The translations under genes were made by a program, and so were the position numbers. From a virus (lineage: Duplodnaviria; Heunggongvirae; Uroviricota; Caudoviricetes): a DNA stretch of 4,830 nucleotides. The notes beneath the pieces were generated by a model. The model ran no database searches. It was not told where the DNA came from and saw nothing but the letters and a program-made list of their open reading frames with translations. Positions 1 through 4,217 of this stretch are shown in pieces. Each line of letters begins with the position of its first letter. Within the stretch, counting starts at the first letter, position 1. The stretch is taken from IMG/VR virus record IMGVR_UViG_2563366878_000014; one strand, given 5' to 3'.

Positions 1-1287
1 GATTCACTGGATATGATTACGGGCTTTTCGCCGTCATATAAAAAAATTGTTATTGGTGATGATGAAATAACGATGCCTGGCGACAAGGTTGTTAAGTTTA
101 AACGCGCATCAACTGCCACATATATCAATAAATCAGGCGTATTTAGTGTTGCTAAAATTGATGAGCCACGATTTGAAAAAGAAGGTTTATTGATTGAAGG
201 ACAGCGCACTAACTATTTTGTTAAATCCAATACTCCCGCTGAATGGACGAGTACCAGCAATATCGATAAAACTAATAATGGTGTTGATGAATTTGGTTTT
301 TCATATGCCAAAATGCGAACAAAAGATAATATGACAGGACAATCATCTGCACTTAGTCTGCATACATGCAGTGCATCCCGGGGGATTGATGTTAGTGGCG
401 ATAATAAGTATTGCACTGTTTCATGCAGGGTTAAAGCTCCTGATGGTCTTCGTTGTCGTTTGCGTTTTGAAAAATACGATGGGTCGGTTTATACATTTTT
501 AGGAGATGCTTATTTAACTTTCGGAACTCTGATAATAGAAAAAACTGGCGGAGCAGCCAATAGAATAGCAGCTACTGCAACTAAAGATCCGGTTACAGGG
601 TGGATTTTCTATGAGGCAACTATAGAAGCTGTTGAAGGTGAAACCTTAATTGGCGCAATGATTCAGTATGCGCCGAAAAAAGGTGGTATAACTGAAGCGG
701 GAGATTATATTTACCTTGCAACACCACAATTTGAAAACGGCGGATGTGCTTCATCTTTTGTTATTACGACAACTGCACCCGCAACCCGCTCCAGTGATAT
801 GGTGACGATCCCAACTGAAAATAATATCTATAATAGACCGCTTACGTGTCTTGTCGAGGTTAATAGAAATTGGGGCGATATTCCTCCTAATGTAGCACCG
901 CGTATTTTTGATTTTTCTGGTGTGCCACCTATTGAGTCAATTACATACGCTTTTAACACAACTGAGAAATATTACGGTCAGCTTTATATGCAAACTTATA
1001 AAGCGTCGACAAGTACTTACGTTTCTAGTGTGTTTGCTGGTCGAACTGATGTTCGAAAATTCATTGGTGGTTTTAATATTTATTCTGATGGTACTAAACG
1101 AGTAGTTTCTAACGGTGAGGCTACTAAAACTATGAAAACGGAGTGGACGGGCGTAAAAACACGGACCTTTATTCGAATTGGAGGTCAAGCCACATCGGGA
1201 ACTCGTCATCTATTCGGCCATTTGAGAAATCTTCGTCTCTGGCATAAAGAATTAACTGATGCGCAAATGGGGGAGAGTATTAAATGA
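1..1287 (+). CDS. Tail fibre / receptor-binding protein, C-terminal part (5'-partial; frame open from base 1, 428 codons in window). C-terminus looks like a lectin-type jelly-roll (LamG/ConA-like) domain.
   Basis: Frame 1 has no stop from base 1 to TGA at 1285-1287. The first ATG at 13 has no room for an RBS, so the gene most likely starts upstream of the window. C-terminal motif ...GTRHLFGHLRNLRLWHKELTDAQM matches my recollection of the typical end of LamG-like jelly-roll domains in phage fibre tips. N-terminal window segment RASTATYINKSG...DEPRF...GLLIEGQRTNY resembles the start of a second such domain (weaker). Genomic context is tail fibre (Tfa remnant and Pin recombinase downstream). Confidence 0.75.
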   Translation, partial: DSLDMITGFSPSYKKIVIGDDEITMPGDKVVKFKRASTATYINKSGVFSVAKIDEPRFEKEGLLIEGQRTNYFVKSNTPAEWTSTSNIDKTNNGVDEFGFSYAKMRTKDNMTGQSSALSLHTCSASRGIDVSGDNKYCTVSCRVKAPDGLRCRLRFEKYDGSVYTFLGDAYLTFGTLIIEKTGGAANRIAATATKDPVTGWIFYEATIEAVEGETLIGAMIQYAPKKGGITEAGDYIYLATPQFENGGCASSFVITTTAPATRSSDMVTIPTENNIYNRPLTCLVEVNRNWGDIPPNVAPRIFDFSGVPPIESITYAFNTTEKYYGQLYMQTYKASTSTYVSSVFAGRTDVRKFIGGFNIYSDGTKRVVSNGEATKTMKTEWTGVKTRTFIRIGGQATSGTRHLFGHLRNLRLWHKELTDAQMGESIK

Positions 1288-1673
1288 AAGATTTAACACT
1301 CAAATTTGCAGACAGGGTCGACTTTTCGGCCTTTATGGAGAGCATTGGCTATTATGATGACGAGTCGATGCAGGATGATATTCTTATTGACGTGATAGGT
1401 AATGTGTACAAAGAAACCGGAGAACTTACTGAAGATGGCGAGCCGGTATGTGTTAAGGAGGACGGATATTTTGTAAATGTGCGCATCATTAATGATTCGC
1501 AAATATCGTCATTATTCGATGAACACGCGGTTGCTGTTGAGCATCAACTCCGTAGCTGGATGTGAGGAAGAAAAATGGCTACATCGACAGTAATTCCTGA
1601 TGACATCAAAACGCTAAAGGGAGATGTCAGTAAGGCAAAGGAAGATATTTCCTCAATTAACGTAAAAGTATCA
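858..1673. repeat. Tandem duplication unit 1 (816 bp), identical to 1674-2489.
   Basis: Checked line by line against 1674-2489 and found no mismatch. Identical ORF pairs in the supplied track are offset by exactly 816 bp (908/1724, 937/1753, 1284/2100). Confidence 0.95.
1284..1565 (+). CDS. Hypothetical acidic 93-aa protein, translationally coupled to the fibre gene; candidate fibre accessory/chaperone (copy 1).
   Basis: ATG at 1284 overlaps the fibre stop (ATGA). SD-like GGGGGAGAG lies 7-8 nt upstream. The protein is D/E-rich. No family recognised from memory. Confidence 0.65.
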   Translation: MKDLTLKFADRVDFSAFMESIGYYDDESMQDDILIDVIGNVYKETGELTEDGEPVCVKEDGYFVNVRIINDSQISSLFDEHAVAVEHQLRSWM

Positions 1674-2390: not shown

Positions 2391-3095
2391 ATGGCTACAT
2401 CGACAGTAATTCCTGATGACATCAAAACGCTAAAGGGAGATGTCAGTAAGGCAAAGGAAGATATTTCCTCAATTAACGTAAAAGTATCAACGCTTCAGAC
2501 TGATATGGACAGTGCAAAGCAGGATATCAGTACCAGATACACAAAAACAGAAGTGGATAATAAGCTGAAAAACAAAGTGGAAGTGAACGATCTGGAAAGT
2601 GGTCGTTATGGCGGAGATTTTTACCCGCTGACTGGCCGTGAAGCGTTTTATTTATGGGGATTGGGCACAACTACAGCGGCGGCAAATCTTTATCTTAATC
2701 CTGACCCTGCAATTTCGTCTGTGCTGCGGTCAACATCGTCTATCCGCTATAAACATTCAGTAGAGACGATAGATTCAGAGCACGCCGATCTCATTTTCAG
2801 GATGCGCCCTGTGTGGTACAGGTCGCAATGCGAAAATGACAGGCGTGACTGGGGATTCTATGGATTGATTGCCGAGGAAGTAGGAGAAATTGCCCCTCAG
2901 TTTGTTCACTGGCGACCAGCCAACGAAGATGATGCACCGGAAACCATTTCCAGCAATGGCCTTGTTGCCGAAGGTGTAATGTACGAACGTCTGGTTGTTC
3001 CACTGATTCACCATATCCAGAAACTGACTGAAAGAGTTGATGAACTTGAGTCAGAATTGAAGTTGTTATCAACTTCCCAAAGCGATATCGGATAA
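2391..3095 (+). CDS. 234-aa fibre-like protein: N-terminal coiled-coil-like region plus C-terminal domain resembling the phage intramolecular chaperone (Peptidase S74-like) domain.
   Basis: Strong RBS GAGGAAG 5 nt before the ATG. C-terminal motifs LIFRMRPVWYR, GLIAEEVGEIAPQFV and VMYERLVVPLIHHIQKLTERVDELESEL match my recollection of the S74 chaperone-domain consensus (LRPVxY / GxIAQEV..P / Y..LVPLL..IKEL). Confidence 0.8.
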   Translation: MATSTVIPDDIKTLKGDVSKAKEDISSINVKVSTLQTDMDSAKQDISTRYTKTEVDNKLKNKVEVNDLESGRYGGDFYPLTGREAFYLWGLGTTTAAANLYLNPDPAISSVLRSTSSIRYKHSVETIDSEHADLIFRMRPVWYRSQCENDRRDWGFYGLIAEEVGEIAPQFVHWRPANEDDAPETISSNGLVAEGVMYERLVVPLIHHIQKLTERVDELESELKLLSTSQSDIG

Positions 3096-3105
3096 AGGAG
3101 GAGTA

Positions 3106-3399
3106 ATGGATATAACACCTTTTCTTCATGCGCTTTGTGCTGTGGCTGCGCAGGTAATGATTGGTCTTTTTACCGGAAACTGGGTTTACGGGGCGATAGC
3201 CGGTTGTACGTTCTTCATTGCGCGTGAACACACCCAGGCAGAATATCGCTGGATTGAAATGTTCGGGCATGGCAAGCGGATTAACATGCCGTGGTGGGGC
3301 GGTTTTGATCCGCGTGTTTGGGATGTGGCAAGCCTGATAGATTTTGCTGTGCCGGTGGTGGCGTGTCTGCTGGTCTGGCTGTTGGTTAATCGTGGGTGA
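3106..3399 (+). CDS. 97-aa small predicted inner-membrane protein (2-3 hydrophobic helices), hypothetical; possible moron.
   Basis: Strong RBS AAGGAGG 4-5 nt before the ATG. Hydrophobic stretches FLHALCAVAAQVMIGLFTG, WVYGAIAGCTFFIA and VASLIDFAVPVVACLLVWLLV. Spot-checked lines are GC-richer than the upstream genes. Confidence 0.7.
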   Translation: MDITPFLHALCAVAAQVMIGLFTGNWVYGAIAGCTFFIAREHTQAEYRWIEMFGHGKRINMPWWGGFDPRVWDVASLIDFAVPVVACLLVWLLVNRG

Positions 3400-3409
3400 A
3401 AAAAGGTGA

Positions 3410-3529
3410 GCTGTATATGCAACGGAGGAAGAAACCCCGTTGCTGGAAGCCTGGAAAAAGTATCGGGTGTTGCTGAACCGTGTTGATACGTCAACTGCAC
3501 AGGATATTGAATGGCCAGCACTGCCGTAG
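3410..3529 (+). pseudogene. tfa: 3' remnant of a tail fibre assembly (Tfa-family) gene: conserved C-terminal 39 codons only.
   Basis: Frame 2 reads [39 protein letters not shown] then TAG, the C-terminal signature I recall for lambda Tfa / Mu U / P2 G-type proteins. An in-frame TGA at 3407-3409 sits immediately upstream and there is no start or RBS. Confidence 0.75.
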
Positions 3530-3605: not shown

Positions 3606-3628
3606 ATCTCACACCGAGATTATTTTTT
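3606..3628 (+). terminator. Weak candidate intrinsic terminator for the + strand gene string (5-bp stem ATCTC/GAGAT, then TATTTTTT).
   Basis: Hairpin 3606-3620 followed by a T-run at 3621-3628. The stem is short and AT-rich, and the site overlaps the recombinase stop on the other strand. Confidence 0.25.
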
Positions 3629-4217
3629 ATATGTCAGGTGTCTGAAGTTTTGCTTTGGCTCTTAAAATGGTTTGCCGCGAGGTTTTGAATTCCCGGGCAA
3701 TGGCACTTATACTTACACCTGACTTAATTCGTTCGAATACCACCTGTTTCTGTTCTTCATTTAACACAGGTGGTCGACCAAAACGTTTCCCTGCGCCCCG
3801 GGCTCTTACTATCCCGGAATGAGTGCGTTCAAGTAAAAGGTCTCGTTCAAATTCAGCGACTGCTGAAATTACTTGCATCATCATTTTTCCTGTTGGACTG
3901 GTCAGGTCAATGCCCCCCAATGCTAAGCAATGCACTCTGATACCTGTTTCGGTCAGTTGTTCCACTGTTTTCCTGATATCCATTGCATTACAACCAAGGC
4001 GATCCAGTTTTGTCACAATCAATTGATCACCACATTTCAGGCGAGCAAGCAACCGGTTAAAACCAGGACGCTCACTGGTTGCTGCTGAGCCGCTAATGTG
4101 TTCTTCGATTATTTGCTGAGGTTTGATTTTAAAACCTGCACTTTCGATTTCCCGGCGTTGATTTTCGGTGGTCTGATCCAGAGTTGATATCCGACAGTAA
4201 GCAAAAATTCGAGACAT
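3627..4217 (-). CDS. pinR: Small serine recombinase, DNA invertase/resolvase family (Pin-like), 196 aa.
   Basis: N-terminal YCRISTLDQ with the catalytic Ser, central LDRLGCN...[16 protein letters not shown], and C-terminal GRPP plus helix-turn-helix are hallmarks of the Hin/Gin/Pin and resolvase family. Length and sequence match my recollection of E. coli prophage PinR/PinQ; I cannot tell those two apart without a search. Convergent with the tail-fibre genes. Confidence 0.93.

Follow-up and report, generated by a model that had tools for sequence, protein, structure and literature searches.

A short prophage protein with an intact S74 Ser-Lys dyad is a probable minimal distal subunit of a multi-component side tail fibre

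The closest described relatives of the protein discussed here are tail fibres that end in an S74 intramolecular chaperone (IMC). In T5 pb1 the cleaved bond is Thr1263|Ser1264 and the lysine is Lys1269 (PMC4690869). For both MyRF and endoNF, the Ser and the Lys have proved indispensable, and S587/K592 of MyRF are equivalent to S911/K916 of endoNF (PMC8326128). For IrisVonRoten (Bas32), an AlphaFold-Multimer model puts the protein Gp24 on the proximal fibre Gp22, which has a protruding galectin-like domain (PMC11990801). The gene for Gp24 follows that of a proximal fibre whose C-terminus is lectin-like and a gene of ~92 codons, and Gp24 carries an N-terminal anchor and a C-terminal IMC. The protein described here shares this gene position, the anchor and the IMC.

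The window (the whole stretch of DNA that was analysed, 4,830 nucleotides of IMG/VR record IMGVR_UViG_2563366878_000014) is an E. coli lambdoid prophage. It carries a mobile three-gene cassette that encodes a proximal side tail fibre, a protein of ~92 aa and a distal protein with an anchor of ~15 aa. Such cassettes are hosted by lambdoid, T1-like, Dhillonvirus, Queuovirinae and T5-like phages, and the proteins encoded by their third genes are 215 to 576 aa long and include the published T-shaped fibre Gp24 of IrisVonRoten. The window also contains an apparent tandem duplication of 816 bp. All features given below lie on the plus strand. Gene 1 (positions 1–1287) is the 3' part of the gene for a 799-aa Stf-type side tail fibre, whose lambda-type N-terminus is encoded upstream of the window. 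Its C-terminus contains a GTA-head-spike-fibre-like domain and a LamG/lectin-like domain, with profile matches to NF048003 (E = 1.6e-15) and, weakly, to Pfam Laminin_G_3. Gene 2 (2100–2381), the copy adjoining gene 3, encodes a 93-aa acidic protein of phrog_1361 and is always paired with a gene 1-type fibre C-terminus (181 phage records). The two gene products are 45% and 39% identical to those of IrisVonRoten genes 22 and 23, respectively. The gene 2 product has neither a Pfam nor an NCBIfam family, and a PDB sequence search returned chance-level matches only. Its AlphaFold2 model (mean pLDDT 44) was computed from a shallow alignment of 24 sequences with at least 81% identity and was discarded as unusable.

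Gene 3 follows directly after the gene 1-type fibre and the ~92-aa gene. It is a real gene, a 234-aa open reading frame at 2391–3095 (stop codon included), and encodes an anchor, a coiled coil, a small tip and an S74 IMC. The product is 100% identical to WP_000235966.1, and phage PhiR49_1 encodes an identical protein; the gene is very common and is already named tail fiber domain-containing protein in RefSeq. A strong ribosome-binding site, GAGGAAG, precedes its ATG within a 9-nt spacer (2382–2390, GGAAGAAAA), and the stop codon of gene 2 lies inside this site. A promoter and terminator scan around gene 3 yielded nothing above the shuffled expectation. As genes 2 and 3 share a frame in the window, with TGA and three codons between them, stop-codon readthrough that fuses the two was also considered. 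Coordinate arithmetic showed the shared frame in only four of seven independent lineages, and the idea was therefore dropped as chance. Gene 3 is intact in 740 of 5,426 complete E. coli genomes (~14%) and is under purifying selection, with an overall dN/dS of 0.17–0.21 and values below 0.5 in each of three regions. Dozens of virulent Drexlerviridae keep a homologue with 55–60% identity.

The first 15 residues of the protein (2391–2435, MATSTVIPDDIKTLK) form a conserved anchor with the motif M[AV]TxT[VN]IPxDI[TK]xLK. The motif recurs in nine other third-gene products from five phage groups (lambdoid, Drexlerviridae, Dhillonvirus, Queuovirinae and Tequintavirus); the products compared have lengths of 215 to 574 aa. 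Across these groups the anchor is kept while the remainder of the protein is swapped. PhiR63_1 and HannyBb, for instance, have gene 1 and gene 2 products that are 75% and 94% identical, and gene 3 products that correspond over the first 32 aa only. Likewise, 78 related prophage loci have two gene 3 alleles, of ~234 and ~346 aa, with gene 2, spacer and anchor in common, and the 9-nt spacing is kept in all 78. The N-terminus also matches the first 33–47 positions of phrog_4563 and phrog_19752. Shared by the distal fibre subunits of five or more coliphage groups, the anchor marks a recombination boundary for swaps of distal modules, which is of relevance to host-range engineering and to the correction of a widespread 'chaperone' annotation. 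We also looked for a site at which gene 3 could dock on gene 1, in its highly conserved junction segment (QPLPDVWIPFNDSLDMITGFSPSYKK...). Phages without gene 3 conserve this segment to the same degree, so that it is uninformative on docking either way and does not discriminate between gene 1 and gene 2 as the partner.

The anchor leads into an α-helical coiled-coil rod, residues 7–68 (2409–2594), with clean heptads over residues 7–49. In this stretch, one register has hydrophobic residues at 12 of 13 a/d positions, compared with 0–6 in the other registers, and the AlphaFold2 monomer model has helices at residues 9–49 and 52–60. These observations bear out the coiled-coil N-terminus proposed in an initial annotation of this DNA. 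The length of the rod varies among gene 3 homologues. It is followed by a small distal tip, residues 69–115 (2595–2735), which ends at the predicted scissile bond T115|S116. These ~45 residues before the cleavage site are conserved rather than hypervariable: in 31 homologues, N99 is invariant and T94 and R113 are nearly so, and the dN/dS of the tip is 0–0.20. Residues 58–111 have low confidence in the monomer model, as would be expected if the tip folds only as a trimer. Searches of Pfam and PHROG and comparisons with homologues revealed no receptor-binding domain of the Gp12-like or T5-like type between anchor and IMC. With only a coiled coil and a ~45-residue tip in this place, the protein may have no receptor-binding role, even though it is a member of the gene family. 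Gp24, in contrast, has 574 aa and two receptor-binding domains, one Gp12-like and one T5-like, and its IMC region is 27% identical to that of the window protein.

Residues 116–234 (119 residues, 2736–3092) are assigned to the Peptidase_S74 intramolecular chaperone/autoprotease by Pfam, PDB alignments, AlphaFold2 and Foldseek. Pfam PF13884 matches residues 116–172 over profile positions 1–57 of 58 (E = 4.6e-6), with a score of 27.3 bits that is modest yet above the gathering cut-off of 22 bits. This upholds the S74-like domain that had been suggested from the bare sequence. The same annotation, however, held the Ser-Lys dyad to be missing. It is present: the motif SSIRYK contains S116 and K121 (codons 2736–2738 and 2751–2753) in the canonical S-x4-K spacing. 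S116 occupies profile position 1, which places the dyad at the same profile position as in the SDRDLK of canonical relatives, and both residues are invariant in 31 homologues. Eighteen residues separate the motif from LIFRMRPV, against 17 between the corresponding elements of canonical relatives (SDRDLK ... RIRKMNGYTY). A MAFFT alignment (A2) places the dyad one residue off; it was left out for the catalytic residues, and the Pfam profile coordinates were used instead, together with a regular-expression and hand check.

The comparisons with solved structures agree with this placement. In PDB alignments, S116 and K121 align with S587 and K592 of MyRF and with the SGIEYK of DT57C LtfA; by our reading of the alignment, the position of MyRF S587 is Ala in the crystallised chain. 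Y143, also invariant in the 31 homologues, aligns by our reading with MyRF Y615 near the cleavage site. The arrangement T115|S116...K121 reproduces the T|S-x4-K pattern of T5 pb1. The string SVETIDSEHAD, cited as evidence of that loss, does exist at residues 123–133, but the motif lies just upstream; the absence was wrongly concluded because the segment inspected was one too far downstream. An intact and correctly spaced dyad is what the annotation itself had named as contradicting its headline claim, which is therefore refuted. A non-cleaving or trans-acting module, for which a missing dyad was the defining premise, is not borne out either. An S74 domain that is both free-standing and catalytically dead would have been truly unusual. 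The evidence shows otherwise, and judged from its sequence the protein is an ordinary minimal member of the known S74 family.

The predicted structure of the domain resembles known S74 chaperones. In the AlphaFold2 monomer model, residues 121–230 of the IMC reach pLDDT values of 76–95 per ten-residue block and form a mixed α/β body with a long C-terminal helix (residues 198–232). Foldseek searches with this model retrieved the MyRF ICA (7dc3, E = 1.9e-5, probability 1.0), the GA-1 neck appendage (3gud, probability 0.97) and the endoNF IMC (3gw6, probability 0.8). These proteins (endoNF is from K1F) have the fold and the Ser-Lys dyad in common with the window protein, whereas their identity to it in structural alignments is only 12–26%. 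Their passengers are triple β-helix tailspikes or a transcription factor, in place of the short α-helical coiled coil found here. A PDB profile search with a second alignment (A1) matched DT57C LtfA only, so that the endoNF and GA-1 chaperones were reached by fold comparison alone. DT57C LtfA (8hqz) is the best PDB sequence match (E = 4.9e-7), and an upstream 'YTKTEVD' fibre repeat is shared as well. Like LtfA and T5 pb1, whose C-terminal intramolecular chaperone is deposited as PDB 4UW7/4UW8, the window protein has a C-terminal S74 IMC, a T|S-x4-K motif and a long C-terminal helix. However, the passengers of pb1 and LtfA exceed 900–1,200 residues and carry a large receptor-binding tip, whereas here a passenger of 115 residues forms a separate subunit that is not the main fibre. 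At 115 residues, mostly α-helical coiled coil, this is a very short natural S74 passenger and hence a convenient minimal model for how S74 domains sense correct trimer folding.

The nearest sequence relatives are found at the ends of long fibres. Residues ~49–234 are 55–61% identical to the C-terminal end of Stf-type fibres of 539–1243 aa. Lambda-type Stf fibres such as P0185 (735 aa) end in the same combination of tip and IMC, with 61% identity over window residues 45–224, including SSxRYK. In these fibres the module is joined to a complete fibre (phage_tail_N and Phage_fiber_2 repeats), whereas in the window a gene of its own encodes it, behind a 15-aa anchor. The comparison indicates that the C-terminal module of long Stf fibres has been grafted behind the conserved anchor and coiled coil. 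The view of the gene as the decapitated C-terminus of an ancestral fibre therefore holds in the evolutionary sense; in others it fails, as the module is anchor-grafted, intact and under purifying selection. Similarly, the domain is indeed encoded by a separate small gene, but it does not stand alone: S74 forms the C-terminal 119 residues behind its own fibrous passenger of 115 residues, the usual cis arrangement. Among the three alternatives put forward in the initial annotation, a short whisker-like fibre comes closest to the evidence.

We therefore propose that the protein represents, in its smallest version, the third-gene subunit of a side tail fibre with several components. In our view it is probably a minimal distal subunit that its own IMC folds in cis and that is cleaved at the T115|S116 bond. 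Trimerisation, cleavage, incorporation into the virion and the docking partner of the gene 3 product are parts of this proposal that we infer. The C-terminal S74 domains (116–234) would bring three chains together and trimerise through the long C-terminal helix. The S74 trimer would then template the short passenger in cis, giving a trimeric coiled coil of six heptads (7–68) and a β tip of ~45 residues (69–115). After correct folding, K121 would activate S116 to cut T115|S116, upon which the 119-residue chaperone would leave and the tip would be exposed. The mature 115-residue trimer could be held on the virion by its 15-residue anchor, docked on the gene 1 fibre, possibly together with the gene 2 product. 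Literature searches returned no experimental study of the short-type protein.

An alternative that we regard as unlikely is a trans-acting assembly chaperone that is not part of the virion: the anchor and coiled coil would dock on the nascent gene 1 fibre, and the S74 trimer would nucleate its trimerisation and folding. This would agree with the label 'putative lateral tail fiber chaperone' chosen by the depositors of PeterMerian, KarlJaspers and VogelGryff (BASEL collection), with the unusually short passenger of 115 aa, and with the reduction of the lambda-type tfa to a remnant in this prophage, which leaves gene 1 without a recognisable Tfa. Lambda Tfa, Mu gpU and T4 gp38 are, like the gene 3 product, encoded by a small gene 3' of a fibre gene, with a 'chaperone' label in some records. 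Proteins of this type, however, act in trans, lack a protease dyad and are unrelated in sequence to the 234-aa protein, for which no Tfa-type family appeared among the Pfam, NCBIfam and PHROG matches. Moreover, gene 3 is optional: the isolated phages 21, ev207 and ev243, and also the rV5-like nimi, carry a gene 1-type C-terminus and gene 2 without it. The body of gene 3 swaps independently of gene 1, the opposite of what would be expected of a cognate chaperone, and a receptor-binding fibre of 574 aa begins with the same anchor. The invariant cleavage dyad has a known purpose only in the release of a cis passenger. We know of no example of a trans-acting S74 IMC. In the systems that have been solved, the IMC and the fibre that it folds belong to one chain (PMC4690869, PMC8326128).

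It is quite unlikely that the S74 domain trimerises the mini-fibre and then stays attached, uncleaved, as a knob at its distal end. In favour of this, the motif SSxRYK has Ser in place of the Asp of the commoner SDxRxK, and the Pfam score of 27 bits is lower than the 53 of the long-type alleles. Yet DT57C LtfA (SGIEYK) likewise lacks this Asp, and the Ser and Lys that are indispensable in MyRF and endoNF (PMC8326128) are invariant here, as is Y143, the residue that we align with MyRF Y615. The IMC is, furthermore, the most strongly constrained part of gene 3 (dN/dS 0.07–0.13).

Equally doubtful is a role of the short third-gene product as a transient assembly cap, in which the anchor, alone or jointly with the 92-aa protein, would plug into the proximal fibre at its end, the S74 trimer would act in trans as a template for that end, and autocleavage would leave a coiled-coil stub of 115 residues. 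If true, an S74 chaperone would here assist in trans for the first time, and the anchor would be a cross-family plug-in socket for fibre engineering. That the ORF is a functionless 3' end left from an ancestral long tail-fibre gene, its ATG retained by chance, is very improbable: the 55–61% identity of residues ~49–234 to the ends of long fibres and the debris elsewhere at this prophage end (the tfa remnant downstream and an orphan pin invertase) would fit such a remnant, but dN/dS is ~0.2 in all regions, 740 complete genomes carry the ORF intact, compact virulent T1-like genomes retain it in the same gene order, it has a strong ribosome-binding site at a fixed 9-nt spacing, and its N-terminus is the conserved third-gene anchor rather than an internal fibre fragment.

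Downstream of gene 3, the window encodes a 97-aa membrane protein of phrog_1443 (3106–3399), which follows the cassette in lambdoid phages and is very similar to gp24 of phage 21, annotated with two transmembrane domains.

The open reading frame at 2391–3095 on the plus strand (gene 3), which follows a strong ribosome-binding site, encodes a 234-residue protein, as the initial annotation had proposed. Pfam Peptidase_S74 (PF13884) matches residues 116–172 over profile positions 1–57 of 58 and scores 27.3 bits (gathering threshold 22), which confirms the S74-like intramolecular chaperone (IMC) domain that had been recognised from the sequence alone. The proposed coiled-coil N-terminus is likewise borne out: across residues 7–49, one register has hydrophobic residues at 12 of 13 a/d heptad positions (the others have 0–6), and AlphaFold2 predicts helices at 9–49 and 52–60. 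The chaperone part of the AlphaFold2 monomer has pLDDT values of 76–95 per ten-residue block (residues 121–230). The best PDB match of the model is the MyRF ICA domain (E = 1.9e-5, probability 1.0), and the endoNF and GA-1 chaperones are also among its best matches. By every feature that can be assessed computationally, the protein belongs to the S74 intramolecular-chaperone family.

The catalytic Ser-Lys dyad had been thought absent, based on the segment SVETIDSEHAD. This segment sits directly after the motif, as the protein reads ...L-R-S-T-S116-S-I-R-Y-K121-H-S-V-E-T-I-D-S-E-H-A-D-L-I-F-R-M-R-P-V.... The dyad is in fact present, and four observations place it at S116 and K121. The Pfam profile starts at S116, just as it starts at the first Ser of SDRDLK in relatives with the textbook motif. 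HMMER alignment with solved structures places S116/K121 opposite the Ser and Lys of the DT57C LtfA fibre motif SGIEYK and opposite position 587 and K592 of the MyRF ICA domain, where we read position 587 of the crystallised chain as Ala. In MyRF, the scissile bond lies between P586 and S587, the substitutions S587A and K592A each abolish cleavage, and S587/K592 correspond to S911/K916 of endoNF (PMC8326128). Finally, cleavage of T5 pb1 falls between Thr1263 and Ser1264 and is activated by Lys1269 (PMC4690869), a T-S-x4-K pattern that is common to gene 3. In an alignment of 31 homologues, S116, K121 and Y143 are invariant; by our reading, Y143 aligns with MyRF Y615, near the scissile bond.

Gene 3 closes a three-gene cassette, consisting of a 650–800-aa fibre (gene 1), a protein of ~92 aa (gene 2) and a variable third gene, that recurs in unrelated coliphages. 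These include temperate lambdoid phages (PhiR49_1, HannyBb, PhiR63_1), virulent T1-like Drexlerviridae (PeterMerian, phiE31-2 and dozens more), a Dhillonvirus (KarlBarth), Queuovirinae (ESCO3, VogelGryff) and T5-like Tequintavirus (HMD-P4, IrisVonRoten, EC104). The third-gene products whose N-termini were examined open with an anchor of ~15 residues, M[AV]TxT[VN]IPxDI[TK]xLK, beyond which they are wholly divergent in length and sequence. They measure 215–234 aa in the type found in the window, 333–351 aa where the chaperone has the canonical SDRDLK, and 384 and 574 aa in VogelGryff and IrisVonRoten, respectively. The EC104 gene at the same cassette position encodes 576 aa. In KarlBarth, the anchor lies on a 98-aa open reading frame that is followed by a second one lacking the S74 motif.

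Genes 1, 2 and 3 of the window are homologous to genes 22, 23 and 24 of IrisVonRoten. Gp24, a published ‘T-shaped tail fiber’, combines an IMC with two receptor-binding domains. An AlphaFold-Multimer model seats it on the proximal fibre Gp22, from whose C-terminus a galectin-like domain protrudes (PMC11990801). The cassette has already been described in outline, and gene 3 is a minimal member of its third-gene family. Unlike its longer relatives, gene 3 has no sizeable receptor-binding domain and therefore may not itself be a receptor-binding protein.

Receptor binding by the fibre probably falls mainly to the lectin-like C-terminus of gene 1, an Stf-type proximal side tail fibre. Position 1 of the window falls within this gene (first in-frame residues of the window ...DSLDMITGF), which continues to 1287 and terminates in a LamG-like motif (...RNLRLWHKELTDAQM). 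Its C-terminal ~440 residues show 42–75% identity among cassettes and match NCBIfam GTA_spike_fiber (E = 1.6e-15); there is also a weak match (E = 0.054) to the Rhodobacter GTA head-spike fibre Rcc01080 (PDB 6tb9). The junction segment QPLPDVWIPFNDSLDMITGFSPSYKK is almost invariant in lambdoid, T1-like, T5-like and Queuovirinae fibres and looks like a recombination joint.

Gene 2, a 93-aa acidic protein (phrog_1361) present at 1284–1565 and 2100–2381, is translationally coupled to the fibre gene by an ATGA overlap. Gene 2 proteins show 39–95% identity among cassettes; the one in the window matches no Pfam or NCBIfam family and yields an AlphaFold2 model with a pLDDT of 44. Gene 2 occurs in 181 phage records, rV5-like myoviruses among them, and in all loci examined follows a lectin-like C-terminus of the gene 1 type, even where gene 3 is missing; conceivably, it is a cognate chaperone or adaptor. 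Genes 2 and 3 share a frame across TGA GGA AGA AAA (2379–2393), so readthrough of the TGA would fuse them. This common frame is probably due to chance, since only four of seven independent cassette lineages keep it, and phiE31-2, VogelGryff and KarlBarth do not.

We consider it probable that gene 3 encodes a cis-folded, self-cleaved mini-fibre seated on the proximal fibre by its anchor. Direct observation covers the domain and its dyad, the heptad pattern, the synteny of the cassette, the anchor, the modular exchange and the selection. The remaining steps, from trimerisation and cleavage to incorporation into the virion and the choice of docking partner, we infer as follows: the C-terminal domain would trimerise and template the short passenger in cis, S116 and K121 would cleave between T115 and S116, and the chaperone would depart. 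The product would be a 115-residue trimer with about six heptads of coiled coil and a small tip (residues 69–115), which the conserved anchor would seat on the proximal fibre.

The distribution of the third gene supports a structural subunit. Of 80 IMG/VR prophage loci in which gene 2 reaches 90% identity or more, 78 had downstream DNA, and all 78 carry gene 3 with its anchor 9 nt 3′ of gene 2, as one of two alleles (~234 aa or ~346 aa). A fixed N-terminal anchor with an exchangeable distal body is typical of fibres attached to the virion. Three related IMG/VR prophage loci (L066, L078 and L079) carry long-type genes truncated to 189, 90 and 323 aa instead of ~346 aa, which shows that the third gene sometimes decays in prophages.

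Some phage records label the product ‘chaperone of endosialidase’ or ‘putative lateral tail fiber chaperone’ (RefSeq has ‘tail fiber domain-containing protein’). A trans-acting chaperone is nevertheless unlikely, and the second of these labels is probably misleading. Against it, the body of gene 3 swaps independently of genes 1 and 2: PhiR63_1 and HannyBb are 75% and 94% identical to the window in genes 1 and 2, and alike in gene 3 for the first 32 residues only. Gene 3 is also dispensable for gene 1, since the gene 1-type C-terminus and gene 2 occur without it in three isolated lambdoid phages (21, ev207 and ev243) and in the rV5-like myovirus nimi. Moreover, purifying selection acts on every part of gene 3 (dN/dS 0.17–0.21 overall; coil 0.28–0.45, tip 0–0.20, IMC 0.07–0.13), and 740 of 5,426 complete E. 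coli genomes carry an intact copy, as do compact virulent genomes. The invariance of the cleavage dyad argues in the same direction; to our knowledge, such a dyad is useful only for the release of a cis passenger. Less likely again is an S74 domain retained as a non-cleaving knob, and a functionless remnant is highly improbable. Our literature search found no experimental work on the short-type protein.

An exhaustive HMMER search (E <= 0.001) yielded 3,465 cluster representatives. Residues ~49–234 recur with 55–61% identity at the extreme C-terminus of 539–1243-aa fibres, and P0185, a canonical lambda-type Stf, combines phage_tail_N and Phage_fiber_2 repeats with the same tip and an SSGRYK chaperone. 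Since long fibres such as P0185 end in this module, gene 3 is a composite, in which the anchor and a coiled coil meet a tip-plus-IMC module around the common YTKTEVD fibre repeat. The initial suggestion of a ‘decapitated’ fibre thus holds an evolutionary grain of truth, but the gene is no remnant. The cluster representatives include further short S74 proteins of 183–242 aa, some of which may be fragments.

E. coli chromosomes match the window with 100% identity at the tail-fibre end of a lambdoid prophage. In the top match, NZ_OY754421, the order is tail-tip J, lom, a 799-aa Stf-type side tail fibre, the 93-aa and 234-aa proteins, a 97-aa membrane protein, a tfa remnant, a Pin-type invertase and ydfK. 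The sole difference is an exact 816-bp tandem duplication in the window (857–1672 = 1673–2488; zero mismatches, 1-nt junction microhomology). The best-matching E. coli sequences in public databases cover 4,014 bp, or 4,830 minus 816, and all eight NCBI contigs encoding the identical gene 3 protein are single-copy here. The repeated unit begins 431 nt before the end of the fibre gene, takes in gene 2 completely and reaches 98 nt into gene 3. The duplication yields an extra gene 2, a 3′ fibre-gene fragment and a 34-codon gene 3 stub (1575–1679; MATSTVIPDDIKTLKGDVSKAKEDISSINVKVSG, then two stops) with its own ribosome-binding site, which encodes the anchor and half of the coiled coil before running out of frame into fibre-gene sequence. 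The full gene 3 is unaffected. The duplication could be a very recent event, an assembly artefact or a constructed feature.

Downstream, the 97-aa membrane protein (phrog_1443; 3106–3399, strong ribosome-binding site) differs very little from phage 21 gp24, whose annotation gives a signal sequence and two transmembrane domains. It trails the cassette in lambdoid phages with or without gene 3, and the T1-like and T5-like loci that we examined have no such annotation there. One possibility is a lysogen-expressed moron or exclusion factor. The 3′ end of a lambda-type tail fibre assembly gene (tfa remnant; 3419–3529, plus strand) adjoins an intact 196-aa PinQ/PinR-type serine invertase (3627–4217, minus strand), and together they look like debris of an ancestral stf-tfa module displaced by the cassette. 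A repeat scan of the whole window revealed no inverted repeats suggestive of an invertible segment. An 18-nt near-repeat lies within the fibre gene (976–993, GGTCAGCTTTATATGCAA) and immediately 5′ of the tfa remnant (3405–3422, GGTGAGCTGTATATGCAA), and may be a recombination scar or due to chance.
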